A DNA stretch of 64,000 bases from a virus (IMGVR_UViG_3300025896_000021), one strand, 5' to 3'. Positions 6,377 through 63,390 are shown, numbered from the stretch's first letter. Numbers and translations: made by a program. The notes: a model not told the origin generated them from the letters alone.

Positions 6377-6682
6377 ATGGATACTAAACAACTTATCACC
6401 GAAGCAAAAGCTCGCTTCAATCACAACTCAGCAAAAGCATATCTAAAAGACAAATACGAAAGTAAGTTGTCCGTCGCCGATCAGGGTGGTTTATGGGTAG
6501 CTACAGTAGAACTAATCTCGTTCTTAACCATCAGCACCATGGATCATGTAGTCTTGTTAGATACATATTCTAATCCTGTCAAAGTAAATAGGGCAGCGTT
6601 ACTCACCAAACTAGACAAAACTTATACCTATGTTATGGATCAATGGCATACTGAATGGGCAGCACTAGAGAAGAAGCGATGA
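6377..6682 (+). CDS. Hypothetical protein
   Basis: AGGA RBS; late promoter-like CTAAATA upstream. Confidence 0.7.
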   Translation: MDTKQLITEAKARFNHNSAKAYLKDKYESKLSVADQGGLWVATVELISFLTISTMDHVVLLDTYSNPVKVNRAALLTKLDKTYTYVMDQWHTEWAALEKKR

Positions 6683-7470
6683 GCAAAGGTGTATTATTAT
6701 TCGCATTTAACAATGACAAAGTAGATTATTATGCAATGGCAATTGCTACTGCTAAACGTGCGAATCAGTTTTTAAATTTACCGGTAACTGTTATAACCGA
6801 TGCGTCTACTGACATGTCAAAGTATGATTACGAGTTTGACAATGTTGTCATAGTTGAAGCTGACAGAACTAATCTCAATGCACAGAATGAAGTATGGATA
6901 AACAAAGGTAGATACCAAGCGTACAATCTAAGTCCATATGACGAAACATTACTACTAGATACAGATTATCTAATCAACAGCAATACATTGTTGAAACCAT
7001 TCGAATTATACGATGACTTCATGTGTCACAATCGGACTAGCTTTCTAATGATTCCAAATCACTATCAAGAGATGATAAGTGATCAGTCTTACCCTACGTT
7101 ATGGGCTACCGTGATCTATTTTAAAAAGACTGCAAAGACTAAGCAGATTTTTGAATGCATGGAAATGATTCAAAAGAACTATCGTCATTACACAACATTG
7201 TACCACATGACCGTGGGCAACTTTAGAAATGACTTTGCACTAACCATTGCACTACGAATCGTGTGTGGACAGACTGACGATAGTAGTCATTACATCCCGT
7301 GGAACTTAGTACACGTTGGAAAGAACACCCATGTGTACCGAGACTCAGATACAATGTATACTGTCATATATGATAACTGGCAACGAGGTAAGATAAAAAA
7401 AGAGTATAGCATTGTAACTGATACTGACTTTCACCTGTTGAACAAAGAAAACTTTATGGAGTTGATATGA
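6679..7470 (+). CDS. GT-A fold glycosyltransferase-like protein
   Basis: SPYDETLLLDTD (DxD motif); ATGA overlap. Confidence 0.6.
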   Translation: MSKGVLLFAFNNDKVDYYAMAIATAKRANQFLNLPVTVITDASTDMSKYDYEFDNVVIVEADRTNLNAQNEVWINKGRYQAYNLSPYDETLLLDTDYLINSNTLLKPFELYDDFMCHNRTSFLMIPNHYQEMISDQSYPTLWATVIYFKKTAKTKQIFECMEMIQKNYRHYTTLYHMTVGNFRNDFALTIALRIVCGQTDDSSHYIPWNLVHVGKNTHVYRDSDTMYTVIYDNWQRGKIKKEYSIVTDTDFHLLNKENFMELI

Positions 7471-8192
7471 GAGGGTTCGTGATAATGGCTCAGAATACTG
7501 AGACAACTGATTACGTAAAGTGCGCAGAAGCATTATCTAAAAGTATCAAGCAAGCGATGCCTGACGCCAATGTGACTATCATTACTGAGTTACCATTAAA
7601 ACTTGACGGCTTTGCTAACGATTGGCAGGTATACAATGCTAGCCCCTACGAGTATACAATCAAACTAGAAGCTGATATGTTTATCCCTACTGACATAAGC
7701 TACTGGTGGGATGTGTTGCAGGATAGAGACTTGGTGTTGTGTACGACTATACGAAACTTCAAAGGAGAAGTATCAGACGTGATGGCTTATCGTCAATTCA
7801 TCACTGACAATGAATTGCCCAACATCTACAATGCTATCACTTACTTTAAGAAATCAAGTATTGCTCAACAATTCTTTAACTTAGTCAATGACATCTTCAC
7901 AAACTGGGAAGACTACAAGAAAATCTTAAAGTGCGATATTAATGAACCAGCGTCTACTGATTGGGTATACGCCATTGCTTCACACTTGATGGGCGTAGAA
8001 CAGACAACGCTCCCCACGTTCACTCAAATGAGCATGGTGCATATGAAGCAACACATTAATGGATTGATAACAGAAGATTGGACTAAAGAACTAGTAACTG
8101 AGTTCCATGCTGACGTGCTGAAAGTCAACACAATCGTACAAAGATACCCCTTTCATTATTATGTCAAAGAATTTGTTGAGGTAATAGTATGA
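7467..8192 (+). CDS. Glycosyltransferase-like paralog
   Basis: SPYEYTIKLEAD parallels the upstream gene, with ExD in place of DxD; shared YFKK motif. Confidence 0.55.
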   Translation: MRGFVIMAQNTETTDYVKCAEALSKSIKQAMPDANVTIITELPLKLDGFANDWQVYNASPYEYTIKLEADMFIPTDISYWWDVLQDRDLVLCTTIRNFKGEVSDVMAYRQFITDNELPNIYNAITYFKKSSIAQQFFNLVNDIFTNWEDYKKILKCDINEPASTDWVYAIASHLMGVEQTTLPTFTQMSMVHMKQHINGLITEDWTKELVTEFHADVLKVNTIVQRYPFHYYVKEFVEVIV

Positions 8193-8536
8193 CCGATGAC
8201 ACATCACAACTCTTTTGGGAAGTTAAAGCACCCGAATCAGTAGAGTTTAGGTTGTATTATGATGACAAAGGTAGTATAATAACTTATACCTGTGAGAAGC
8301 TACCGGGTAACTATCTTGTAATTGATGCCCAAGTGTTTGCTGAATGCAGACCTGATCTTACTGTAGTGAACGGCATGCTAGTCAAACTTGTACCTGAAGT
8401 GTTTCTTTCATTACTAGCTAAGTCTGATTCAGGAACTAAGTGTGCAAGCGATGATGTTTCGATAATAGTATCGGATGACTACGAAGGTAATATCACACAT
8501 TGGGACCTAAAAAGATATGAGTACAAATATAGTTGA
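8189..8536 (+). CDS. Hypothetical protein
   Basis: Coupled ORF in operon. Confidence 0.65.
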   Translation: MTDDTSQLFWEVKAPESVEFRLYYDDKGSIITYTCEKLPGNYLVIDAQVFAECRPDLTVVNGMLVKLVPEVFLSLLAKSDSGTKCASDDVSIIVSDDYEGNITHWDLKRYEYKYS

Positions 8537-9464
8537 TGTAGCAGATTTAGATTGCATCTACCTAAGCTATGATGAACCGCAGAAGGAAGAATTCTGGGTT
8601 AAGATTAAGAACATGGTGCCTTGGGCACAACGAGTAGATGGTGTCAAGGGTAGTGATGCAGCACACAAAGCCGCTGCAGAGGCAAGCGACACTGAACGAT
8701 TTATCTTAATCGACGGGGACAACATGCCCAATGAGTCTTTCTTCAATATGCAGTTAGACTTCACTGACAAAGACAAGAACTATGAACTAGCGCAGTATCG
8801 TTGGAAAGCTATCAACAGCGTTAACGGATTACGTTATGGCAACGGTGGCATGAGTTCATGGACAAAATCTTATGTAATGAACATGAAGACCCATGAAGCT
8901 AGCGACGGCAATGACAACAACACAGTAGACTTTTGTTTAGACAGTAGCGACAACTTGTATTGGTCAATGCATGATTGCTACTCTACTACCTATCCCAACA
9001 TGACAAGTTTTCAAGCATGGCGTGCAGGGTTTCGTGAAGGTGTCAAGATGTGTCTAGTCAACGGAGCAAAGCCTTCAGTTGAACAGTTTAAAGATAGTGT
9101 TGCGAATAGGAACATGAACAACTTGACGATCTGGCACAACGTGGGCATGGATGCAGAGAATGGTGACTGGGCAATGTATGGTGCTAGACTAGGAACATAC
9201 ATGACTATGCTTACTGATTGGAATCCACAAGAAGTTCAATGGTTTGACAACTTTGCAAAACTATGGGACGAATACAAAGATAGAGATCCAAGATTCTCTA
9301 GTGAATTCTTTGGTGGAGCATTGGGTGACAAATTAGGATTGCCTATCTGTACACTAAATGCAGAACAAAGTAAATTCTTTAAACGTCACTATAACACTGA
9401 CAAACACAACATGGGTCCTCTCGTTAGAGAGATGGACGTAATTAGAAACATAGAGGGCTGGTAA
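8517..9464 (+). CDS. GT2-like nucleotide-sugar transferase
   Basis: ILIDGDN DxD motif; AWRAGFREGVKM; related to the C-terminal domain of 19380..22874. Confidence 0.55.
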   Translation: MSTNIVDVADLDCIYLSYDEPQKEEFWVKIKNMVPWAQRVDGVKGSDAAHKAAAEASDTERFILIDGDNMPNESFFNMQLDFTDKDKNYELAQYRWKAINSVNGLRYGNGGMSSWTKSYVMNMKTHEASDGNDNNTVDFCLDSSDNLYWSMHDCYSTTYPNMTSFQAWRAGFREGVKMCLVNGAKPSVEQFKDSVANRNMNNLTIWHNVGMDAENGDWAMYGARLGTYMTMLTDWNPQEVQWFDNFAKLWDEYKDRDPRFSSEFFGGALGDKLGLPICTLNAEQSKFFKRHYNTDKHNMGPLVREMDVIRNIEGW

Positions 9465-36277: not shown

Positions 36278-36684
36278 TGTATATTGGAACAAGTTTGGGT
36301 AGATGTTTGCGTAGCATTCTTATAGGTGAAGTGTCCGAGGAAGATGTATTATTGATCATCACTCGTACTATGACATTCGATACAGAGCGTTTTATCGGTG
36401 TAGTAAAAATGTATTACCAAGAAGGTAACTACACTTCACGTAATTCAACTGACTATGATCTTTCAGTCAAGCCATGGGAAGAAGTGGAAGCACTTGCTAA
36501 CCGATTGTATACTACTGGCAAGATTCATCAGCCTAGGAACTTTGTAAATTTGGGTAATCAATTTATACATCCTGAATTGAGCAATGATGTTTGGGTTGAA
36601 GTAGCACCTAAAAGTCGTAATTCTACACCTGCGGTTGTTCAGGCATACGATCAATATAAAATGCTTGATGCGTTGACAAAATGA
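36274..36684 (+). CDS. Hypothetical protein
   Basis: ATGA overlap. Confidence 0.7.
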   Translation: MMYIGTSLGRCLRSILIGEVSEEDVLLIITRTMTFDTERFIGVVKMYYQEGNYTSRNSTDYDLSVKPWEEVEALANRLYTTGKIHQPRNFVNLGNQFIHPELSNDVWVEVAPKSRNSTPAVVQAYDQYKMLDALTK

Positions 36685-36929
36685 ATGTAAATGTACTGGC
36701 TTGGTATGCTACCCGCAAGCTAGCATCCTCTCCACCTCACTTTGTAAAGTGCAATACTCCCTTGTCGGATAAATCACTACTTTGGGTAATGGCTAAATTA
36801 CAAGGTAGATATTCATTATCGGACAGAGACGAAGACGATGATTTTGTGTTTTTAACCACACATGATATTTCCTTTGAAGATCCAGCAGAAGCAATGCTGT
36901 ATGAGTTACGCTGGTCGGGTACAAAATAA
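36681..36929 (+). CDS. Isolated member of the LRW small-protein family
   Basis: Ends FEDPAEAMLYELRWSGTK. Confidence 0.65.
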   Translation: MNVNVLAWYATRKLASSPPHFVKCNTPLSDKSLLWVMAKLQGRYSLSDRDEDDDFVFLTTHDISFEDPAEAMLYELRWSGTK

Positions 36930-53847: not shown

Positions 53848-54924
53848 ATGATGACAAAAAAGCCTAACACTAAAGAACAATTAGTTGATTACTTGCTAAA
53901 ATACATAAGTTTGGGCACTTACGATAAAAAGTTTGTTAGCAATATATTGCAACTTAACATTACTACTGGTAAATCTGTTACCACTAATCAAGCAGCCCTG
54001 TTAGATAAAATCATTCTGCGATATCATCGGCAACTAGCTAAAGCAGAAATAAATAGCATTGACATGGTTAACCTTTCGTGGTCACTGCCACCGATTGAAA
54101 GTTCACCTATCTATACTGAGGCACATGTGTCTGTTATGGATGATACCACGCTCATTATTCATAGTCCCTACAAAAAGGATTTTGTAAAGGAACTTAAGCA
54201 ATATGATTACATGAACTGGGACCGCGACAATAAATTATGGTCCACTATAGCATCGGAGCACACACTAAAGCAAGTGTTGGAAGTTGTTAATGCTCACTAT
54301 GATAAAGTAAATTACTGTCCTATAGTACAGCAAGTAGTAGACACTGTGACAGAATACGAAGGTATGCTATACTGGAATCCAACACTAACTCGAATAAAAG
54401 GTAATCTGTACGTAGTTGCTGCAAATGGTCCACTGATGGAAGCGATTACTAATATTCCTTTGGATACTGATTATCACACATTAGCTAGACTAAGCAGAAT
54501 GGGAATCAGAATTGAGCCGGCACTTATTAGTGCAGTACATGATGAGTTGGGCGGGTCTGACGAAGTGTTTAAGAAACTGATATTTGCAATTGACCATCAA
54601 CCCAAGATTGAAATGTCTAACCAATCTATGATCATAGAACATCTGTTAGATATCAAAGCAGATATCGTGATACTCAACCAGTGGTTTGGTACAAACAAAA
54701 CTTATGTTATGGAATTAGCTAATTTATTGAAAGCAAATAAAATCGAACATAAGATATTAAAAACTAAATCAGGTCTCGGTGAAGTAGTTGACACTGAGTT
54801 AAAGACATATGACATGCCCATAAAACTTAACATAGGAGTGTTCAATACGCACGGATCACTTAAACATATAGCCAAGAATGTACAATTGGTAAACAGCAAC
54901 GAAATCTATATAGAGTATAAATGA
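53848..54924 (+). CDS. Hypothetical protein
   Basis: ORF directly after TTGCAT-N17-TATAAT. Confidence 0.7.
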   Translation: MMTKKPNTKEQLVDYLLKYISLGTYDKKFVSNILQLNITTGKSVTTNQAALLDKIILRYHRQLAKAEINSIDMVNLSWSLPPIESSPIYTEAHVSVMDDTTLIIHSPYKKDFVKELKQYDYMNWDRDNKLWSTIASEHTLKQVLEVVNAHYDKVNYCPIVQQVVDTVTEYEGMLYWNPTLTRIKGNLYVVAANGPLMEAITNIPLDTDYHTLARLSRMGIRIEPALISAVHDELGGSDEVFKKLIFAIDHQPKIEMSNQSMIIEHLLDIKADIVILNQWFGTNKTYVMELANLLKANKIEHKILKTKSGLGEVVDTELKTYDMPIKLNIGVFNTHGSLKHIAKNVQLVNSNEIYIEYK

Positions 54925-56399
54925 AACAATGTAAAATAATCGTCAAAGACGAAGTAAACGTAAAGATAGAGGGCTTGGATCTACCTGATCGTAAGGCTCT
55001 AATGAAACTATTTGAGTTTGATGTACCCGGCGCACGGTATTTGCCAAGTGTCCGACTCGGTAGGTGGAACGGCAAGACTAGCTACTTTAGTCTAGGTGGG
55101 TCAAGTTATATCAACTTGCTTCCCGAGATTCTTCCTGTACTTGAACGTGTCGGTTACGACATTGAGTTAGAAGACACACGGGACTATACAACTACCTTTG
55201 CGTTTACTGAGGTTACTGAGGAAACATTCAAACATAAAGTATGGCCTAAGAATCATCCTATTGCGGGACAACCAATTGTACTGCGTGACTATCAGATTGA
55301 GATTATCAACAACTATCTTAAGAATCCGCAAGCACTGCAAGAAATTGCAACGGGTGCTGGCAAGACACTAATCACTGCTGCACTTAGTTCTGCTATTGAG
55401 CAGTATGGTCGTAGTATTGTTATCGTGCCTAACGTTAGTCTAGTAGGTCAAACCGAAGCTGATTATATTAACTTGGGGCTTGATGTTGGTGTGTACTACG
55501 GCGGCCGCAAAGAGTACAACAAGACGCATACTATTTGCACTTGGCAGTCACTAGGTAACATGCTTAAGAACACTAAAGCAGGAGAAGCAGAAGTTGACAT
55601 TGGCGACTTCTTAGAAGGCGTAGTTTGTGTTATCGTTGACGAGGTTCACCAAGCTAAAGCAGAAGTATTGAAGACATTGCTCACTGGGGCAATGAGTCAG
55701 ATTCCATTACGTTGGGGCTTGACTGGTACTATCCCTAAAGCTAGATTTGAATCAATGTCGTTGACTGTTAGTTTAGGCCCAGTGATTGGTAGTCTAACTG
55801 CTAGTACATTACAAGAGCAAGGTGTGTTGAGTAACTGCCATGTTAACATCCTACAACTACAAGATGGAGTTGAGTTCCCTAACTATCAAACTGAATTAAA
55901 GTACCTAGTTGAGAACAGTCAGCGTATGGATTGTATTGCTTCACGTATCTTTAAGATTAAGGATACAGGTAACACATTGGTCCTTGTTGATAGGATTGAA
56001 GCTGGTAAAATACTACATCTTAAGTTAGAAGAATTAGGTGTACCCGAAGCTGACGTAGTGTTCGTGTCGGGTGGCACTAAGTCTACTACTAGGACTGATC
56101 ATTACGATGACATTGCTACAGCAACTAACAAGATTATTATCGCAACATACGGTGTAGCCGCAGTTGGTATTAATATCCCGCGTATCTTCAACGTAGTGTT
56201 GATTGAACCGGGTAAGAGTTTCGTTCGAGTTATTCAAAGTATCGGACGAGGCATACGTAAAGCAGAAGACAAAGACTTTGTGAATATCTGGGATATCACT
56301 AGTAGTTGTAAGTTCGCTAAACGACATTTGACCCAACGGAAGACATTCTATCGTGATGCCAACTACCCGTTTGACGTTGAAAAAATTAAGTATAAGTGA
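54921..56399 (+). CDS. uvsW: UvsW-like SF2 helicase
   Basis: LRDYQ, ATGAGKT, DEVH, GLTGT, QSIGRGIR. Confidence 0.9.
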   Translation: MKQCKIIVKDEVNVKIEGLDLPDRKALMKLFEFDVPGARYLPSVRLGRWNGKTSYFSLGGSSYINLLPEILPVLERVGYDIELEDTRDYTTTFAFTEVTEETFKHKVWPKNHPIAGQPIVLRDYQIEIINNYLKNPQALQEIATGAGKTLITAALSSAIEQYGRSIVIVPNVSLVGQTEADYINLGLDVGVYYGGRKEYNKTHTICTWQSLGNMLKNTKAGEAEVDIGDFLEGVVCVIVDEVHQAKAEVLKTLLTGAMSQIPLRWGLTGTIPKARFESMSLTVSLGPVIGSLTASTLQEQGVLSNCHVNILQLQDGVEFPNYQTELKYLVENSQRMDCIASRIFKIKDTGNTLVLVDRIEAGKILHLKLEELGVPEADVVFVSGGTKSTTRTDHYDDIATATNKIIIATYGVAAVGINIPRIFNVVLIEPGKSFVRVIQSIGRGIRKAEDKDFVNIWDITSSCKFAKRHLTQRKTFYRDANYPFDVEKIKYK

Positions 56400-56914: not shown

Positions 56915-57511
56915 ATGGCAACTAGAAAAGCAGCAGCACCCGTTGATGAGAAATTTGAGAACATGGACTTTGACTTGTTCAATGCACTAACCGCACTGGA
57001 TAAGAAAGACTATGCTTACATTGACCGACTCACTGACGAACAGCAACGTAAGTTCGTTCCCTACATGATGACGCACTGGATGAGTGCCATCAAAGCTAGC
57101 GGTGATCTTCAAGGCTATTACTTGATGAGCACGAACTATCATGCAAACATTCACTTGTTCAATGAATATGTTAGCAAGCATCCTAAGCTACAATGGCAGA
57201 TGTTATGTGCAGCTAGTCCAGGCATTGGTAAACAATTTCATCAGTGGATACCGCATCTGTCTAGTAAAGTAACACAGCTTAAAGAAACTCCTAAAGAAAA
57301 AGATATTCGTGACTACTTTACTAAAATCTATCCTAAGGTAAGTGCTGATGATATCAAAGAAATCAGTGAAGCATTTGTAACTACACACAAGAAGAAAGTA
57401 TACTTGGCAAACAAGTATCCTAACTTAAAACAAACAGATATTGAAACATTATCGGAGCTAGTAACAGATGCTGAAATTAAACAATATGAAAAAGATAGTG
57501 GCAACAGTTGA
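56915..57511 (+). CDS. Possible clamp-loader small subunit (gp62-like)
   Basis: F-x-PY-x-x-x-x-WMS...HPKLQW...HQWI pattern. Confidence 0.45.
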   Translation: MATRKAAAPVDEKFENMDFDLFNALTALDKKDYAYIDRLTDEQQRKFVPYMMTHWMSAIKASGDLQGYYLMSTNYHANIHLFNEYVSKHPKLQWQMLCAASPGIGKQFHQWIPHLSSKVTQLKETPKEKDIRDYFTKIYPKVSADDIKEISEAFVTTHKKKVYLANKYPNLKQTDIETLSELVTDAEIKQYEKDSGNS

Positions 57512-58190
57512 GCCAAAGCATACCTGTGAGTTTTGTCATCGTGAATTTGTGCGAGAACGAACATTAATCAGTCATCTATGTGAACAGAAGCAAAGATGGC
57601 TGAACAAAGATATCAAAGGTAACCGACTAGGCTTTCAGTGTTGGTTGCAGTTCTATACCAAGAACAGCATGAACCGAACTAAGAATAAGACCTATGAAGA
57701 ATTTATTAAGTCTGCATACTACACTGCCTTTGTAAAGTTTGGTACTTATTGTGGTGAAGTCAATGTAGTCAATGTAAGCCGCTTTGTTGATTGGTTACTC
57801 AAAGAAAATATCAAGCTAGACAACTGGCATAGTGATTCAGTTTATACTACCTTCTTGCAGGATTACCTTCGCAAAGAGGATCCGTTTGATGCGATACATC
57901 GTGGCATTGAGCATTCTATAGTATTAGCCAAAGCAGCAAACATTCAGTCACACGACATATTACGATTTGGGAATGTGAACAAAATCTGCTATGCCATAAC
58001 AACGGGCAAGATAAGTCCATGGATGTTGTATCAGAGCAACAGTGGTACCCATTTTCTAGATACTTTAAATCCAGACCATGTTAAAATGATCATAGAGTAC
58101 ATAGACCCGGAACAGTGGGCAATCAAATTTAAACGAGATCCTGAAGTTGCTAAACAAATCAAAGAGTTATTGGGGGCGGGAGGATATTAA
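57486..58190 (+). CDS. Hypothetical protein with N-terminal zinc finger
   Basis: CEFC...HLC; start uncertain. Confidence 0.65.
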   Translation: MKKIVATVEPKHTCEFCHREFVRERTLISHLCEQKQRWLNKDIKGNRLGFQCWLQFYTKNSMNRTKNKTYEEFIKSAYYTAFVKFGTYCGEVNVVNVSRFVDWLLKENIKLDNWHSDSVYTTFLQDYLRKEDPFDAIHRGIEHSIVLAKAANIQSHDILRFGNVNKICYAITTGKISPWMLYQSNSGTHFLDTLNPDHVKMIIEYIDPEQWAIKFKRDPEVAKQIKELLGAGGY

Positions 58191-58365
58191 GCATATAGCA
58201 GAGATTCCTTATACTAGAGTGCAACAGCATGAGGTGTTTGAATGGTTGCTAGTCAATTTAGGATTGCCCGGACACGATTATTATGTCAGACATGATTCTA
58301 CTACGTTAGCAGTACATTTTACAACAGAACAAAATTACATTTGGTTTATATTGAGGTGGTCGTAA
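58147..58365 (+). CDS. LRW-family small protein 1
   Basis: Ends FTTEQNYIWFILRWS; start uncertain. Confidence 0.6.
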   Translation: MLNKSKSYWGREDIKHIAEIPYTRVQQHEVFEWLLVNLGLPGHDYYVRHDSTTLAVHFTTEQNYIWFILRWS

Positions 58366-58658
58366 TGAACGAAAAAATGATTCACGAATTTGTACAACGC
58401 TACGGAGCCAGGGTAGATTACCAACATGGTCGTAGCAGCTTTGAAACCTATAGCAGGTCAATGAATTATTACGATGACCGTAAAAGTGTAGTAGATATTG
58501 AACTATCCAGGCAAGAATTTGAGCATTTAGTTGAAGCAGATCACCATGCAGAAGTTGACTATCGTGTTAGAAGCGAAGAAGCACGCCTGCGCAGTAAATA
58601 CCCTGCGTTGGAAACAGCATATAGCAAATACAAAATGTTATTGGAGCTATACAAATGA
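58365..58658 (+). CDS. Small hypothetical protein (YPAL-x-x-AY-x-x-YKML type)
   Basis: TAATG overlap; GAGGTG RBS. Confidence 0.75.
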   Translation: MNEKMIHEFVQRYGARVDYQHGRSSFETYSRSMNYYDDRKSVVDIELSRQEFEHLVEADHHAEVDYRVRSEEARLRSKYPALETAYSKYKMLLELYK

Positions 58659-59014
58659 ACGATCTGCTACCTTATCAACACGCACTATATGATAAACTGC
58701 AAGCAGGTGGATTTAAGCAAGGAGAACTAGTTGTCTTTGCCGCTGGTCGTCAAACCGGCAAGAGTATGCTCTATAAGACTATGCTTAATGAAATGTATGG
58801 ATCAATGACGAAACAACCTATTTTCTCGGTAAATGGCAAAGCAGAAGTAGATGGTGCAACTTGGTATACTGTACACTGCAATAGAGATATCAGTACATGG
58901 TTGCGTAATCAACCTAAAGAGTGGCATTATGAAGCATTAGCACACGGATGGAGTGGTTGTCAATTTGACATTCACGAAAAACTTTACACAATGTTGATAT
59001 TGCGATGGAGCTAA
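58655..59014 (+). CDS. LRW-family protein with N-terminal Walker A fragment
   Basis: LLPYQ...GGFKQGELVVFAAGRQTGKS; ends MLILRWS. Confidence 0.75.
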   Translation: MNDLLPYQHALYDKLQAGGFKQGELVVFAAGRQTGKSMLYKTMLNEMYGSMTKQPIFSVNGKAEVDGATWYTVHCNRDISTWLRNQPKEWHYEALAHGWSGCQFDIHEKLYTMLILRWS

Positions 59015-59253
59015 AACTAAGTGAAGGCAGAGTCTCGGGGTCACGATACTATACAGTTGATCCTAACCCAAATTGGGATCCTTATTGGTACAATCAAGGT
59101 TGGTTTGATATGGAAATTTGGTGTCTGACGCAATTTGGTCCAACTCCGAATGATGGTGTGTGGACACCCGGTGCTCGTTGGTATATGAACAATAGAAAAT
59201 TTTGGTTCCATAATGAAGCAGACTTATCTTGGTTTATATTGAGGTGGTCATGA
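59005..59253 (+). CDS. LRW-family small protein
   Basis: WCLTQFGP...FHNEADLSWFILRWS. Confidence 0.8.
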   Translation: MELKLSEGRVSGSRYYTVDPNPNWDPYWYNQGWFDMEIWCLTQFGPTPNDGVWTPGARWYMNNRKFWFHNEADLSWFILRWS

Positions 59254-59483
59254 GTAATACAGCAAGCTGGACAACATTCGGCAAGGATCGTTATCATCTC
59301 AACGGTGAGATGGAACGCTGGTGCCTAGACAATGTTGGGAATGGTGGTTGGACTTATAGTACTCCCGAAACTTGGGAAGGTATGGGTGGCAAAGTTTGGA
59401 TTATGCACAGCATGTTTGGTAACACTACCTTTGTATTTAAAGAGTCCAAACACTTAGCTTGGTTTATGTTGAGGTGGGAATGA
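59250..59483 (+). CDS. LRW-family small protein
   Basis: WCLDNVG...FKESKHLAWFMLRWE. Confidence 0.8.
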   Translation: MSNTASWTTFGKDRYHLNGEMERWCLDNVGNGGWTYSTPETWEGMGGKVWIMHSMFGNTTFVFKESKHLAWFMLRWE

Positions 59484-59698
59484 GTTCACTTGTAAGAATA
59501 AAAAACAAGAATGCAATAGCAGCAATGGATATAGTAAGAGAGTTGCGTGAGAAGGGGTATGTACAGGGAATTGATTTTGATTTTAATTACTATCATCAAG
59601 AATCCGATGATCCACAGGACATCACCGAGCAGAGACATACCTTATTCACTTTTTACAAAGAGGGGCTGGCAACATGGTTCAGTTTAAAGTACCTATGA
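59480..59698 (+). CDS. LRW-family small protein (LKY variant)
   Basis: FYKEGLATWFSLKYL. Confidence 0.75.
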   Translation: MSSLVRIKNKNAIAAMDIVRELREKGYVQGIDFDFNYYHQESDDPQDITEQRHTLFTFYKEGLATWFSLKYL

Positions 59699-59952
59699 CA
59701 TTAGAAGATGAGTTGGCGGCGACGGCGGGTAAGATCATGGCAGATGAAATTGACTGGGAAATTTTAGCTAACCTATTAGTTCAATCAGGCTGGTTTATGG
59801 TAGACTTAGATCATTACAGAGACCGTTACCAAAGTATTGACATTGAAACATGGATTGATGAAAACTGCAAGGGCAAATACAAGAAACACAGTAGAACATT
59901 CGTGTTTGAGAAGAAAGAAGATGCAGCTTGGTTTAAGTTAAGGTGGCTATGA
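59695..59952 (+). CDS. LRW-family protein with N-terminal gp23-like helix
   Basis: EDELAATAGKIMADEIDWEIL; ends FEKKEDAAWFKLRWL. Confidence 0.75.
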   Translation: MTLEDELAATAGKIMADEIDWEILANLLVQSGWFMVDLDHYRDRYQSIDIETWIDENCKGKYKKHSRTFVFEKKEDAAWFKLRWL

Positions 59953-60158
59953 GAGTATTGAAGAAAGAACTGTGGCCTTGCAAGGTAGAACTGGATCTAG
60001 ATCAAAGTCAGACCAAGTTGATAGAAATAGAAACTTGGCTAGGCGAACATTATGGTCCTTTAAAGAATCGCTGGAATGTGGTTTATCAATGGGACCATAC
60101 TGTATTTTATTTTCGGCAAGGCACTGATGCTACCATGTTTTCATTGAGGTGGGTATGA
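59949..60158 (+). CDS. LRW-family small protein
   Basis: WLGEHYG...FRQGTDATMFSLRWV. Confidence 0.78.
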   Translation: MRVLKKELWPCKVELDLDQSQTKLIEIETWLGEHYGPLKNRWNVVYQWDHTVFYFRQGTDATMFSLRWV

Positions 60159-60547
60159 TAGAATATATTAAAGACAAGTATTTGACTTGGCGTACTGGTG
60201 TTGATAAACAAACACGTGATCATCGTAAGTGGTATGATGAAACTGTTGTTCAACGTGCTAGTACGATTGAAAATATGTTTATGAACTTCAAGTACATACT
60301 GCCAGTATCTACGAATATATTTGATTTTTCTGAGCCGTTTGGTTGGTACCCCAACAAAGAATTTAGACAGTATATGTGGCCTAACCGAAAGTTAGATGAC
60401 TGTTCCGTGTATTACTTTGCCCGTGGCTATAGAGATAAGTGGGATGGTAAATTTTATATGAATGACTTGCGGCACGACGAAGACCAAGTGTTTGTAGCAA
60501 CTAACAATGAGGTAGATGCTATGATGATAACATTGAAATATTCATGA
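60155..60547 (+). CDS. LRW-family protein (LKY variant)
   Basis: NNEVDAMMITLKYS. Confidence 0.72.
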   Translation: MIEYIKDKYLTWRTGVDKQTRDHRKWYDETVVQRASTIENMFMNFKYILPVSTNIFDFSEPFGWYPNKEFRQYMWPNRKLDDCSVYYFARGYRDKWDGKFYMNDLRHDEDQVFVATNNEVDAMMITLKYS

Positions 60548-60888
60548 CAATAAGCAATTCCACAATTAATATGATTCGTAAGCAATTGCCAATTCTACTG
60601 GCAAAAGCTATTACAGGCGTGCAACCTATGACAGGCCCGGTTGGGGGACTCTTTAGAATGAAATATACCTATACTCCACAATCAAAGTATAAATTTACCC
60701 GTGCCAACTGGTATGTGGCAGAGTTCAACATTAAAGATTATACTGATGTTGTACATTGGTGTAGGGAACAGTTTGGTCCACATCCTCGTAATCCCGATGC
60801 TTGGAGTCGTTGGGAACACAAGTATGAAGATAAGATTTACTTCCGTGATGAGAAAGATTATGCTTGGTTCATGTTGAGGTGGTCGTGA
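60544..60888 (+). CDS. LRW-family protein with N-terminal major-capsid (Gol-like) fragment
   Basis: MIRKQLPILLAKAITGVQPMTGPVG; ends FRDEKDYAWFMLRWS. Confidence 0.8.
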   Translation: MTISNSTINMIRKQLPILLAKAITGVQPMTGPVGGLFRMKYTYTPQSKYKFTRANWYVAEFNIKDYTDVVHWCREQFGPHPRNPDAWSRWEHKYEDKIYFRDEKDYAWFMLRWS

Positions 60889-61136
60889 GAAAATTAATTC
60901 CAAATAATATAACTGTAACTGAACAGTTTCGTATCCGTACTCAGTTTGTTGGTATGGTTGGAAAATGGAAACAAAGTATTCTTACTACCACCAGCAAGAA
61001 ATATCTAGAGTTAGAGTTACAGTGGTTGGAGCGGGACAGCGGTGTTCGCTGTCATTATACTAACAATGGTGAATTGGTAGGATTTAAGTTAGTTGATGAA
61101 AAAATGTATGCTTGGTTTGTGCTGAGGTGGGCATAA
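60885..61136 (+). CDS. LRW-family small protein
   Basis: GTGA overlap; DEKMYAWFVLRWA. Confidence 0.75.
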   Translation: MRKLIPNNITVTEQFRIRTQFVGMVGKWKQSILTTTSKKYLELELQWLERDSGVRCHYTNNGELVGFKLVDEKMYAWFVLRWA

Positions 61137-61141
61137 GTAAC

Positions 61142-61396
61142 ATGACTATTAAATTTACTAGTACAGAGTGGGTAGGTGCTGAACCAGAAAACACTGACAT
61201 TGTGTTAAGATCAGAAGCAGGGTTAACTGGGAAGTTTACGGATTTTTCTAATGAAGTTTTTCTATGGTGCTTTGATAATGGCATTGAAGCAGATATGGTT
61301 GGTAAAAAATATAATAGTGATGACAATAGTGATTATAGTCTATGGAGAATTGAAAATGAACAGCACAGAACTTGGTTTATATTGAGGTGGGCATGA
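61142..61396 (+). CDS. LRW-family small protein
   Basis: WCFDNG...ENEQHRTWFILRWA. Confidence 0.78.
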   Translation: MTIKFTSTEWVGAEPENTDIVLRSEAGLTGKFTDFSNEVFLWCFDNGIEADMVGKKYNSDDNSDYSLWRIENEQHRTWFILRWA

Positions 61397-61605
61397 TCAA
61401 AAGACAATATAACAGATGGCGCTACGGCGACAATAAATCTTACTTTGATAACTTTGTTGATGCACATGGACCAGATGAAGTCATTGAAGATAAATTATTA
61501 TTCTATAAAGCAACTATAGGTAAAAGTAAGAATAAAAATCACAAACTAAATGTCAAGTGGCATGATCCAAAAATGTATGTGGTGTTTGTATTGAGGTGGG
61601 CATGA
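61393..61605 (+). CDS. LRW-family small protein
   Basis: DPKMYVVFVLRWA. Confidence 0.75.
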   Translation: MIKRQYNRWRYGDNKSYFDNFVDAHGPDEVIEDKLLFYKATIGKSKNKNHKLNVKWHDPKMYVVFVLRWA

Positions 61606-61790
61606 AATTACTGGAAGACTACTCAGTATCATTGAGCGCAGACAGATGGATCAAAATAAAAGAACAATTAACAAAAGTTGAATCTAATTCATTGGTGTCT
61701 ATTACTTGGACAGGTCCGTTTGAAAGAACCAGAATATTACGATTTAAATCTGAGAATGATGCATTGATATTTGTATTGAGGTGGTCGTGA
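61602..61790 (+). CDS. LRW-family small protein
   Basis: FKSENDALIFVLRWS. Confidence 0.75.
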   Translation: MKLLEDYSVSLSADRWIKIKEQLTKVESNSLVSITWTGPFERTRILRFKSENDALIFVLRWS

Positions 61791-62071
61791 AGATAGTATG
61801 GGGCAGAAGCATAGGATTTAATATGAGCCTTAACGGTATGGAAAAATTTGGGTCAGGATTTAATCCAATGGAAATTACAATTATCAAAGACGGAGCAGGT
61901 TGCTATCCGTGGACAGAACATTTTGCATGGCTACCAGTTAAAACAATTACAGGTCTACGTGCTTGGGGTGTTAAAGTTTACAAGCGTAGAGTTTGGATGG
62001 TATGGGGTACAGGCTTTCATATGGAACCAGAAACTCAATACGCAACATTGTTTGAGATTCTGCAAGAGTGA
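61787..62071 (+). CDS. Small hypothetical protein (FAWLPV type)
   Basis: GTGA overlap; no LRW end. Confidence 0.7.
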   Translation: MKIVWGRSIGFNMSLNGMEKFGSGFNPMEITIIKDGAGCYPWTEHFAWLPVKTITGLRAWGVKVYKRRVWMVWGTGFHMEPETQYATLFEILQE

Positions 62072-62331
62072 AAAAGCCTAAACCAAAGAAGCCAAAAGCT
62101 AAGATACCCAAAGATGCACTAATAGTTGACTATGGATCGCATCGTGTGATCCTACCTTATAAACACCCATTAGACTTGTATAATAACAAAGAACTTGATA
62201 CAATAAGTGAATGGTGTAAGAAAACTCTCCCAATAGACTCCTGGCGTATCAACAGAGGCTCTTGGCCCGGTCACATCTACTTCTTAAAAGAAAGTTATGT
62301 CACACTGTTTTTATTGATGTGGGCAAAATAA
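62068..62331 (+). CDS. LRW-family small protein (LMW variant)
   Basis: WCKKT...FLKESYVTLFLLMWAK. Confidence 0.72.
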   Translation: MKKPKPKKPKAKIPKDALIVDYGSHRVILPYKHPLDLYNNKELDTISEWCKKTLPIDSWRINRGSWPGHIYFLKESYVTLFLLMWAK

Positions 62332-62609
62332 TGGCAATAAAAAATATATACCCAATGGGTACATTCTCTCAGAAAATTGACTACGAAGAAGTTATCGTAG
62401 ATGCCGCGCCTAGATCGTATGGTAAGAAAACTATATACGTATATCTTTGCAAAGACTTGAAAGAAGATCCTAGAACTATTGTAAAATGGTGCAGAAGAAA
62501 CTTCGGTGACAGAGGCAATGGCTGGGACTTTATGTTGACTTCCGGAAATATCACGATAGAGATATGGAATGACAAATTAAAATTTATGTATGAAATGTGG
62601 AAGACATGA
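62331..62609 (+). CDS. LRW-family small protein (divergent)
   Basis: WCRRNFGDRGNGWDF...FMYEMWKT. Confidence 0.7.
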   Translation: MAIKNIYPMGTFSQKIDYEEVIVDAAPRSYGKKTIYVYLCKDLKEDPRTIVKWCRRNFGDRGNGWDFMLTSGNITIEIWNDKLKFMYEMWKT

Positions 62610-62830
62610 TTCAGAACAAAAAACACGAAAAGTTAAACACTTGGCGCATATTAAAAGACTTAGAACCTGTACAATCACTAAAATGTAGATTGAATTGGCA
62701 TCTATGGACTAACTGGGAAGTATGGGATGGTGAATGGTCTAGAGGTAATGTTAGTCACGCTACCTGCTACTGCGCTAGATGTGGTATGCCTAGAACTGAA
62801 GCACCCTACAGTAAAAGTAAAAAAGGATAA
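62606..62830 (+). CDS. Small Cys/His zinc-binding-like protein
   Basis: CRLNWH...CARCG. Confidence 0.65.
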   Translation: MIQNKKHEKLNTWRILKDLEPVQSLKCRLNWHLWTNWEVWDGEWSRGNVSHATCYCARCGMPRTEAPYSKSKKG

Positions 62831-62832
62831 TT

Positions 62833-63390
62833 ATGGCAGATATAATGATAGACATTGAATCACTAGATACAACACCAGATTGCGTGATTCTTACAATTGG
62901 TGCAGTATTGTTTGACCCTCGTGGTCAGGGCATTATTGACAAGATTGAGATTAGACCTACGATTGAGGATCAAACAGAAATACATAACAGGAGTATTAAT
63001 GAAGACACACTACGATGGTGGAGTACACAAAGTCCAGCAGCACTTGAAGAAGCTATGGGAGACACCGGACGCGTATCATTTGCAGACTGTATGGAGACGC
63101 TATACAAGTTTTGTTGGAATCATAATAATGTTTGGAGCAACGGTGCTTCCTTTGACGTGGTCGTCATGGAACACGCTTGGAGACAAACATCAACTAGACC
63201 AAATCCAATACCCTGGCCCTTCTATAAAGTCAGAGACACTAGAACTTTGTATGAAGTGACTGGTGTAAGTTTGAAAGACGGTAACTATGCGACTACCCAC
63301 AAAGCTGTTGAAGATGCCGAACGACAAGCTATAATACTACAGAAGGGCTATTTGAAGTTAATTAAAGCAGGGCTAGTGCAACCTAAATGA
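62833..63390 (+). CDS. DEDDh 3'-5' exonuclease (DexA/Rv2179c-like)
   Basis: MIDIESL, WSNGASFD, RDTRT, HKAVEDA. Confidence 0.88.
   Translation: MADIMIDIESLDTTPDCVILTIGAVLFDPRGQGIIDKIEIRPTIEDQTEIHNRSINEDTLRWWSTQSPAALEEAMGDTGRVSFADCMETLYKFCWNHNNVWSNGASFDVVVMEHAWRQTSTRPNPIPWPFYKVRDTRTLYEVTGVSLKDGNYATTHKAVEDAERQAIILQKGYLKLIKAGLVQPK

Follow-up and report, generated by a model that had tools for sequence, protein, structure and literature searches.

An apparent hyperplastic cassette array of small phage proteins in which the coding end of a shared fold probably sets up translation of the next gene

This article concerns 18 successive open reading frames (ORFs), named g01-g18, that occupy positions 58,147-62,830 on the plus strand of a 64,000-nucleotide stretch of viral DNA (IMGVR_UViG_3300025896_000021; the window, hereafter, means that whole stretch). 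Judged from its sequence, this run is a hyperplastic cassette array of small phage proteins lodged in one fixed slot within a block of replication genes, where most members share a compact fold and where the DNA encoding the end of that fold also spells a ribosome-binding site (RBS) and start codon for the gene that follows. The array comes from an uncultured phage of approximately 359 kb with a T4-like core; a contig of 359,393 bp carries the same g10 protein, and the terminase encoded in the window is T4-like and about 50% identical to the terminases of the jumbo phages Phosso, PA5oct and Atu_ph07. The surrounding genes serve replication and recombination and include a RecA/UvsX-like protein, a superfamily 2 (SF2) helicase and a DEDDh exonuclease. 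The SF2 helicase (ResIII plus Helicase_C) lies upstream of the array at 54921-56399 (+), and from about 53.8 kb to the end of the window the genes are packed, leaving no intergenic gaps.

Two conserved plus-strand genes frame the slot. The left border is a gene for a 240-residue protein (57468-58190), which occurs in 81 relatives in IMG/VR at 41-90% identity, always directly before the variable slot and in synteny with the helicase and two more genes upstream; a Pfam scan gave it no match, and near its N-terminus it has a C-x-x-C-H...H-L-C motif. The right border is a DEDDh-type 3'-5' exonuclease (62833-63390; Pfam Rv2179c-like, E = 3e-31) whose synteny is kept in 53 relatives. Between them, a mechanical ORF list begins most genes at a TTG or GTG within the tail of the preceding gene, and I re-set the starts to the codon that overlaps or just follows the preceding stop, which gives proteins of 48-130 residues. 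Counting the one into the downstream exonuclease gene, there are 18 junctions, 16 of which are of the three types (11 ATGA, 3 GTGA and 2 TAATG) by which an earlier note on this DNA had described the genes as chained; the remaining junctions are a 10-nt overlap between g03 and g04, a 5-nt gap between the g11 stop and g12, and a 2-nt gap before the exonuclease gene. Eleven genes end their C-terminal motif in L-R-W, with LKY in g06 and g09, LMW in g16 and EMW in g17. I regard this anatomy as virtually certain.

The earlier note had proposed that about 15 of the 18 genes share a C-terminal motif, and had suggested a hidden Markov model of that domain as a check. A profile built from 107 outside proteins only, and tested on the genes of the window, recognizes 14 of the 18 (E = 7e-24 to 5e-5), with g09 borderline (E = 0.09) and with g02, g15 and g18 unmatched and counted as non-members; the family is upheld, and the external profile puts the count at 14-15 of 18. 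Two members are the fold alone, g08 (59949-60158; 69 residues; E = 7e-24) and g01 (58219-58365; 48 residues from a GTG at 58219; E = 5e-15), the latter having an uncertain start (the mechanical one is a TTG at 58147) and an end spelled TTG AGG TGG TCG TAA TG. The other members of modest length are g04 (59005-59253; 82 residues; E = 1.5e-16), g05 (59250-59483; 77 residues; E = 1e-19; 67% identical to protein P0018), g06 (59480-59698; 72 residues; E = 2.8e-5; orthologs in many relatives), g11 (60885-61136; 83 residues; GTG start; E = 9e-7), g12 (61142-61396; 84 residues; E = 1.5e-11), g13 (61393-61605; 70 residues; E = 4.6e-5; orthologs at loci L003 and L042) and g14 (61602-61790; 62 residues; E = 7.5e-8). 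The borderline g09 (60155-60547) is 130 residues long with a long N-terminal part and has an ortholog at L003; its E of 2e-13 against a window-based profile is circular. Certain paralog pairs are significant by themselves, namely g04-g10 (E = 1.6e-7 over 54 residues), g04-g05 (3e-4) and g07-g08 (6e-4).

A second profile, of 51 positions and derived from 15 C-terminal regions of the window, finds 1,012 clusters (50% identity) at E <= 1e-3 among 1.84 billion representatives, nearly all of them proteins of 50-110 residues matched at the extreme C-terminus. The same placement, with 0-3 residues beyond the aromatic position, holds for 15 of 15 window members and 198 of 212 from relatives. Taken together, the external and window profiles point to real homology across phages, and the shared C-terminus is, on this reading of the alignments, truly homologous. 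Scans of the array proteins returned no Pfam, PHROGs or PADLOC model for the family, the sole exception being a Gp23 fragment in g10, and PADLOC in particular, run on 10 array proteins, gave no match at E <= 0.01. Library matches below cut-off (AglB_core, DUF6895, DUF2251, tail terminator and ocular albinism) were disregarded.

Structure models were made for two members, g08 and g10. The AlphaFold2 model of g08 (114 aligned sequences) is confident, with a mean predicted local distance difference test (pLDDT) of 89 and a predicted template modelling score (pTM) of 0.76, and shows a strand at 11-15, a helix at 21-35, strands at 42-46 and 51-55 and a helix at 58-68; the g10 domain is predicted with the same elements at a pLDDT of 80-92. 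The W-C-x-x-x-x-G motif corresponds to the first helix and F-x-x-E-x-D-A-x-W-F-x-L-R-W to the last strand and last helix, so that the conserved unit, as modelled, is an entire beta-alpha-beta-beta-alpha fold of approximately 55-60 residues. The prediction agrees with the proposal that the C-terminal regions share one fold, and it revises the notion of a C-terminal domain as a mere tail: the homology stands, and in short members the domain is the whole protein. Hydrophobic or aromatic residues (W, F, L) make up most of the conserved positions, which to my eye resemble the core of a fold more than an evident shared docking surface.

Fold searches bring up only alpha-beta sandwiches of a generic kind (designed ferredoxin folds and the domains of ACT and EF-G type), the best structural match being the ACT domain of TyrA (5v0s_B; Z 6.7, root-mean-square deviation 2.2 A over 55 residues), and Foldseek with the g08 fold gave nothing below E 0.2. 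The likeness to ferredoxin-like and ACT folds lies in element order and packing, which follow the first five elements of beta-alpha-beta-beta-alpha-beta; the array fold, as modelled, differs in having no last (fourth) strand, sequence identity is 5-16%, and the scores fall in the range that the tool calls common for unrelated small folds, which gives no ground for shared function. Two uncharacterized small proteins of Vibrio, 2khd and 2jz5, were among the better rows and were not significant. Among BFVD viral models, dozens of uncharacterized proteins of uncultured tailed phages were matched, together with one from Atu_ph07, and the nearest ESM Atlas clusters are all viral and labelled 'hypothetical protein'.

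The end of the fold is also where one gene hands over to the next. An LRW ending is written TTG AGG TGG NNA TGA, in which the stop overlaps an ATG and GAGG precedes that ATG by 5 nt; the codon of the final residue is always NNA or NNG, because the overlap with the next start demands such spelling. AGG is found at 10 of the 11 motif Arg positions, whereas it supplies 5.5% of the Arg codons of 34 large window genes and, elsewhere in the array genes, 4 of 78 (binomial probability 2.6e-12, a value that has to be tempered by the common ancestry of paralogs, which leaves the motif codon counts not fully independent), and relatives have AGA or AGG at 136 of 150 motif Arg positions. It could be argued from this spelling that the shared ending is merely a nucleotide signal, an RBS or junction carried by unrelated ORFs whose tails have converged: the LRW codons read GAGGTGG, the last residue is dictated by NNA/NNG and the TGA overlap, and the Arg is not conserved in Sinorhizobium phage Phosso. 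The profiles, however, span 45-65 residues rather than 4, a common fold is confidently predicted, and members that end a coupled run keep Leu-Arg-Trp while losing the Shine-Dalgarno spelling, as at L001 3968-4387, which reads CTC AGA TGG with the next gene 92 nt off. Because Leu-Arg-Trp is retained with no coupled gene, Trp is a constraint at the protein level. Phosso members end in F-K-L-x-W, the aromatic position being kept while T, A, R or S stands at x; an Arg there is spelled mostly AGG or AGA before an NNATGA overlap and mostly CGC in the absence of one. Several Phosso joints that have no Shine-Dalgarno-like GAGG still keep the aromatic position and the F-x-F...D-A..F-x-L pattern, as do uncoupled members at the end of a run. 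As a full explanation the nucleotide signal is refuted and I give it hardly any credence; it survives for the Arg codon and the last residue alone. The Trp appears to be part of the fold, and the Arg and the one-residue tail look to be largely set by the RBS and start of the next gene.

Because the end of the fold doubles as RBS and start, a cassette brings the translation signals of its successor with it, and each one would supply them to whichever gene comes next. Translational coupling through this joint is, from its spelling, very probable, and the whole array may be read as a single message along which terminating ribosomes restart at the next gene.

Now considering the slot in relatives, 80 related IMG/VR loci were retrieved with the upstream 240-residue gene and the slot was compared in 53. 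The flanking genes keep their order at 55-95% identity and the interval between the left-hand gene and the exonuclease holds 0-14 members (median 5) in 491-6,706 bp, seven relatives having none; the window has the largest slot, with 15 members. Content differs even in the nearest relative, which is 90% identical in the left-hand gene and has only some cassettes in common at 33-78% identity, and in one relative whose complete genome has 359,563 bp this single slot houses almost every member. DNA similarity to the closest relatives halts at the end of the left-hand gene and resumes in g17, and the blocks in between match exactly g16 (62,069-62,327), g02-g04 (58,345-59,257) or g08; with L004 and L006 the g16 block (62069-62327/62332) is exactly that gene. 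The proposal of an expandable cassette set is borne out by this variation and by homology blocks that stop at cassette borders, and the array is not invariant among relatives. It is rather likely, given where the blocks end, that recombination takes place at the joint, the repeated 15-24-nt element serving as a crossover site for cassette exchange.

Individual cassettes can be followed from locus to locus. Each window member has an ortholog elsewhere that is much closer than its best paralog in the array and, because of this, the array is to be seen as an assembly of old subfamilies and not a recent burst of duplication. The most widely kept cassette is g17 (62331-62609; 92 residues; E = 6e-11), which adjoins the right border here and lies just before the exonuclease gene in most relatives, while its neighbour g16 (62068-62331; 87 residues; E = 2.4e-11) has a Lys/Pro-rich N-terminus. 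The non-members travel as well: g02 (58365-58658; 97 residues) has an ortholog at L005 (69% identity, ratio of non-synonymous to synonymous substitution rates, dN/dS, 0.23), g15 (61787-62071; 94 residues) is a conserved passenger of arrays with orthologs of 46-62% identity at five loci (L003, L036, L042, L048 and L067), and the Cys-rich g18 (62606-62830; 74 residues) has orthologs of 57-78% identity at L004 (78%), L006 and L067, located in one case after the exonuclease. For g04 the L005 ortholog is 71% identical with a dN/dS of 0.19, for g16 the ratio is 0.08-0.10, and over the ortholog pairs it is 0.08-0.42 versus 0.05-0.08 for the flanks at similar synonymous distance. The array genes are real and under purifying selection, yet their proteins change 3-7 times faster than those of the flanks. 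One might picture instead selfish cassettes that spread through a recombinogenic joint with little benefit to the phage, and a slot that ranges from empty, as in those seven relatives, to 15 members at no apparent cost would suit them. Yet pN lies well below pS in every ortholog pair tested, and the subfamilies are old and widely kept, with g17 retained beside the exonuclease in most relatives, which makes selfish spread highly improbable.

Every member with a known taxon belongs to a virus. Four cultured jumbo phages were searched with a profile, which gave 33 matches in Phosso, arranged in several arrays with many ATGA overlaps, 5 in Atu_ph07, 3 in PA5oct (gp237, gp210 and gp209, each annotated hypothetical) and none in Vibrio phage 2.275.O. 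In the 469-kb Phosso genome (PV764938) the members, at least 33 and all annotated hypothetical, form arrays at, for example, 6673-8917, 95000-100600, 112800-117400 and 369300-371000. Such members are detectable only by profile: a megablast of the region against deposited phage genomes found no match, and tblastn against the same genomes found none for g03, g09 and g17 at E <= 0.01 and none for g08 at 1e-3. None of gp237, gp210 and gp209 is named in the main text of the omics paper on PA5oct. Elsewhere in the window there is one solitary distant relative (36681-36929, +; 82 residues), which ends in ...ELRW plus 4 residues and matches the profile weakly through its C-terminal helix (E = 0.011); a Pfam scan assigned it to no family.

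The possibilities do not end with the shared fold, since some members have something in front of it. The first reading was of a constant domain displaying N-termini unrelated to each other. As a general rule this display does not hold, since the stretch before the fold is shorter than 10 residues in 103 of the 212 distinct members taken from relatives, 10-19 residues long in 47, 20-39 in 50 and 40 or more in 12. In the window a real extension (at least 20 residues) is present in seven genes, g03, g07, g09, g10, g12, g16 and g17, and a lesser one in g04 and g11; in short members the apparently unrelated N-terminus is the diverged first strand and helix of the fold itself. The extensions sort into a handful of orthologous types, and of the three said to resemble core phage proteins, profile tests sustain those of g10 and g03 and not that of g07.

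The clearest case is g10 (60544-60888; 114 residues), whose N-terminal part copies a capsid protein. Residues 6-51 match Pfam Gp23 (E = 1.5e-9; 38.2 bits versus a cut-off of 24.4) and cover only positions 7-51 of the approximately 376 in the profile (PF07068), a fragment match on which the idea of g10 as a full HK97-type capsid protein was rejected. With tblastn, g10 matches the capsid gene in 750 deposited phages, it matches the capsid protein of a relative at E = 6e-10, and residues 3-43 align gaplessly with residues 91-131 of T4 gp23 (39% identity, E = 4e-9), where residues 93-122 are what I take to be the Gol region. A 29-residue Gol segment is the most conserved part of gp23, and in T4 it binds EF-Tu and activates the e14 Lit protease (PMC3014915). 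That g10 carries a copy of the best-conserved stretch of the major capsid protein is confirmed by these sequence comparisons. It differs from gp23 in being a non-structural protein in which the segment alone is fused to a small fold, and the link to EF-Tu and Lit would hold by analogy. There are 330 homolog clusters of g10, many with a Gp23 match, and the fusion persists to identities as low as about 50%, across dozens of clusters drawn at 90% identity; among 61 homologs GVQPM hardly varies. In the g10 model the capsid module is a low-confidence helix and coil (pLDDT 54-69) tethered to the confident domain, and is predicted to be flexible.

The N-terminal part of g03 (58655-59014; external profile E = 2e-5 over residues 73-119) had been thought a terminase fragment and proves instead to resemble the stretch around Walker A (H1) in a DnaB-like helicase. 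In relatives, a DnaB-type helicase of 476 residues (DnaB_C, E = 2e-20) is encoded 5-7 kb downstream of the array; its residues 167-196 share 52% identity with residues 13-45 of g03, and hhalign aligns g03 with it over 36 columns around Walker A at a probability of 93% (E = 2.4e-7); against the terminase of the window the probability is 5.6% over 15 columns of P-loop only, with a BLASTP E of 0.19. The Pfam match to DnaB_C (PF03796; E = 0.039) is below cut-off, and g03 as a DnaB-like helicase proper was rejected, only those 36 columns being alignable and the remainder being the small fold. That it carries this Walker-A stretch is likewise confirmed by profile comparison, and the apparent donor type is the 476-residue helicase found, for instance, at L035:17224-18654. 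A tblastn of all array proteins against the window gave nothing convincing outside the array, and because they find no source there, the capsid gene and the DnaB-like helicase gene are placed outside the window; this phage's own equivalent of the helicase should lie just past the window's end. For g07 (59695-59952; external profile E = 7e-11), the acidic N-terminal helix of about 30 residues is conserved in an alignment of 15 orthologs. Its candidature as a fragment of the capsid spine helix was dropped, the match to a relative's capsid protein being a BLAST E of 0.009 and an hhalign probability of 47%, and that to T4 gp23 at the equivalent helix 0.2%; a capsid origin is not established.

Modules also change places. 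Domains of the g10 type that are 75-87% identical are found bare, joined to the capsid or the helicase module, or as hybrids, and two diverged domain subtypes, those of g03 and g10, both bear the helicase module. By sequence, modules are genuinely swapped on a carrier that stays constant, within the g10 subfamily only. The linker N-L-C-x-E-I-L-L-P-M that follows the helicase module grades through hybrids (P0165, P0180 and P0233) into L-x-A-Q-x-I-x-G-V-Q-P-M, and the helicase-module proteins (P0185, P0189, P0206 and others) appear to have kept the capsid segment in decayed form, which would put two borrowed pieces into a single small protein.

What, then, might the array do? I lean, if only slightly, towards a coupled cassette array of accessory small proteins that includes some mimics. 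The proteins may serve as accessory binders whose diversified surfaces engage proteins of the host or of its defences, and I suggest this binder or counter-defence role, read from sequence patterns, tentatively and with a little less than even confidence. For the g10/g03 subfamily, a flexible capsid or helicase copy could occupy whatever recognizes those stretches; molecular mimicry by such capsid-like and helicase-like modules is possible and rather unlikely. Produced earlier than the capsid protein itself, a copy could, by analogy with Lit, blunt or divert a Lit-like sensor, which is more doubtful still. One can go further and imagine the array as a library of peptide mimics, a stable carrier fold that would present, as flexible segments, the least-mutable stretches of essential phage proteins (capsid Gol-like, helicase Walker-A and perhaps others too diverged to recognize), with copies that precede the real proteins and pre-occupy or mis-trigger pattern-recognition defences like Lit, CapRel and Avs-type systems, and with the coding joint letting phages trade mimics as ready-to-express cassettes. 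This analogy-driven picture I consider distinctly unlikely.

Several points weigh against the coupled array with mimics and its parts. Half of the family has no extension, which confines mimicry to a minority, and short fragments are recognizable only when they come from very conserved regions, which makes 'most conserved' partly a detection bias. The generic fold matches (Z 6.7; Foldseek E 0.2) carry no functional lead. A scan of the array gave 29 promoter-like sites versus 26.8 expected and 5 terminator-like sites versus 4.5, neither enriched, and the timing of expression is deduced solely from the neighbouring replication genes. As for exchange at the joint, selection that purges out-of-frame rearrangements would equally leave borders at gene ends.

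These same data could describe a plain expansion, specific to the lineage, of an accessory family that follows no logic of display and in which the capsid and helicase fragments are tolerated by-products of sloppy recombination. About half of the relatives' members are the bare fold and approximately 30% have at least 20 residues in front, most N-terminal extensions match nothing, and the capsid claim for g07 fails, all as plain expansion would have it; the capsid fusion, however, is kept across dozens of clusters with GVQPM almost unchanged, and the helicase module has turned up on two diverged subtypes. Because the one is kept and the other recurs, selection on the modules is indicated, and I judge plain expansion unlikely without being far-fetched. 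A different use of the fragments would be competition between phages or superinfection exclusion, with dominant-negative pieces of capsid and helicase poisoning related phages that co-infect. Both sources are oligomerizing proteins (a capsid shell and a hexameric helicase) and the array turns over fast, both of which speak for this use. Against this, the g10 core GVQPMTGPVG is identical to that in a relative's own capsid protein and, because it is the same, g10 could not tell self from rival; the Walker-A strand, moreover, sits buried in the core of the RecA-like ATPase fold and not at an exposed interface. Competition is, from these comparisons, improbable, and the coupled array of accessory proteins with some mimics is the explanation that I retain.

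Whatever its role, the family is large and uncharacterized, with more than 1,000 clusters and dozens of copies in some genomes, and a noticeable part of the small genes left unexplained in large phages of fresh water and soil probably belongs to it. In the joint one sees how genes can be gained, lost and exchanged by a virus while their expression stays intact. If it is true that the modules mimic features recognized by sensors, they would represent a new counter-defence principle and, at the same time, ready-made probes for those sensors. Members in the cultured phages Phosso, PA5oct and Atu_ph07 make the family experimentally accessible, and Phosso is a ready model.

Word searches of the literature found no description of such an array and, to my knowledge, a joint that is at once fold terminus, RBS and start, placed at the borders of exchanged homologous cassettes, is undescribed in the searchable literature; its parts do have relatives. 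Overlap of stop and start as ATGA or TAATG, with the RBS inside the upstream gene, is a textbook operon feature, and the array shares with textbook coupling the stop that overlaps the next start and the GAGG 5 nt upstream. It differs in that one 15-nt joint recurs about a dozen times, tied to the protein motif of a single family, and in that the joint coincides with the borders of exchanged cassettes. Integron arrays likewise hold small, varied, promoterless cassettes in one slot, expressed from upstream and with a repeated element at each joint, whereas the cassettes here are homologous to one another and the joint is coding; neither an integrase nor an attC-type folded site is evident, no search having been aimed at either. 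The closest described system is that of the promoter-early stem-loop (PeSL) cassettes in the hyperplastic regions of T4-type phages (Arbiol et al. 2010, PMC2839356; Comeau et al. 2014, PMC4122927). I rejected the array as PeSL cassettes proper, given that its genes overlap and that the promoter and terminator scan was not enriched: the PeSL is non-coding, consists of a sigma-70-type promoter and a terminator hairpin and acts on transcription, whereas the array, which leaves no intergenic DNA, has a coding repeat that closes a protein fold and works at the level of translation, and the array genes are homologous to each other, unlike those that PeSLs flank. What the two have in common is that, within a variable region of a phage whose core is T4-like, small non-essential genes alternate with a short regulatory motif that recurs, that each unit has an expression signal of its own, and that close relatives differ at the motif by whole genes inserted, deleted or replaced.

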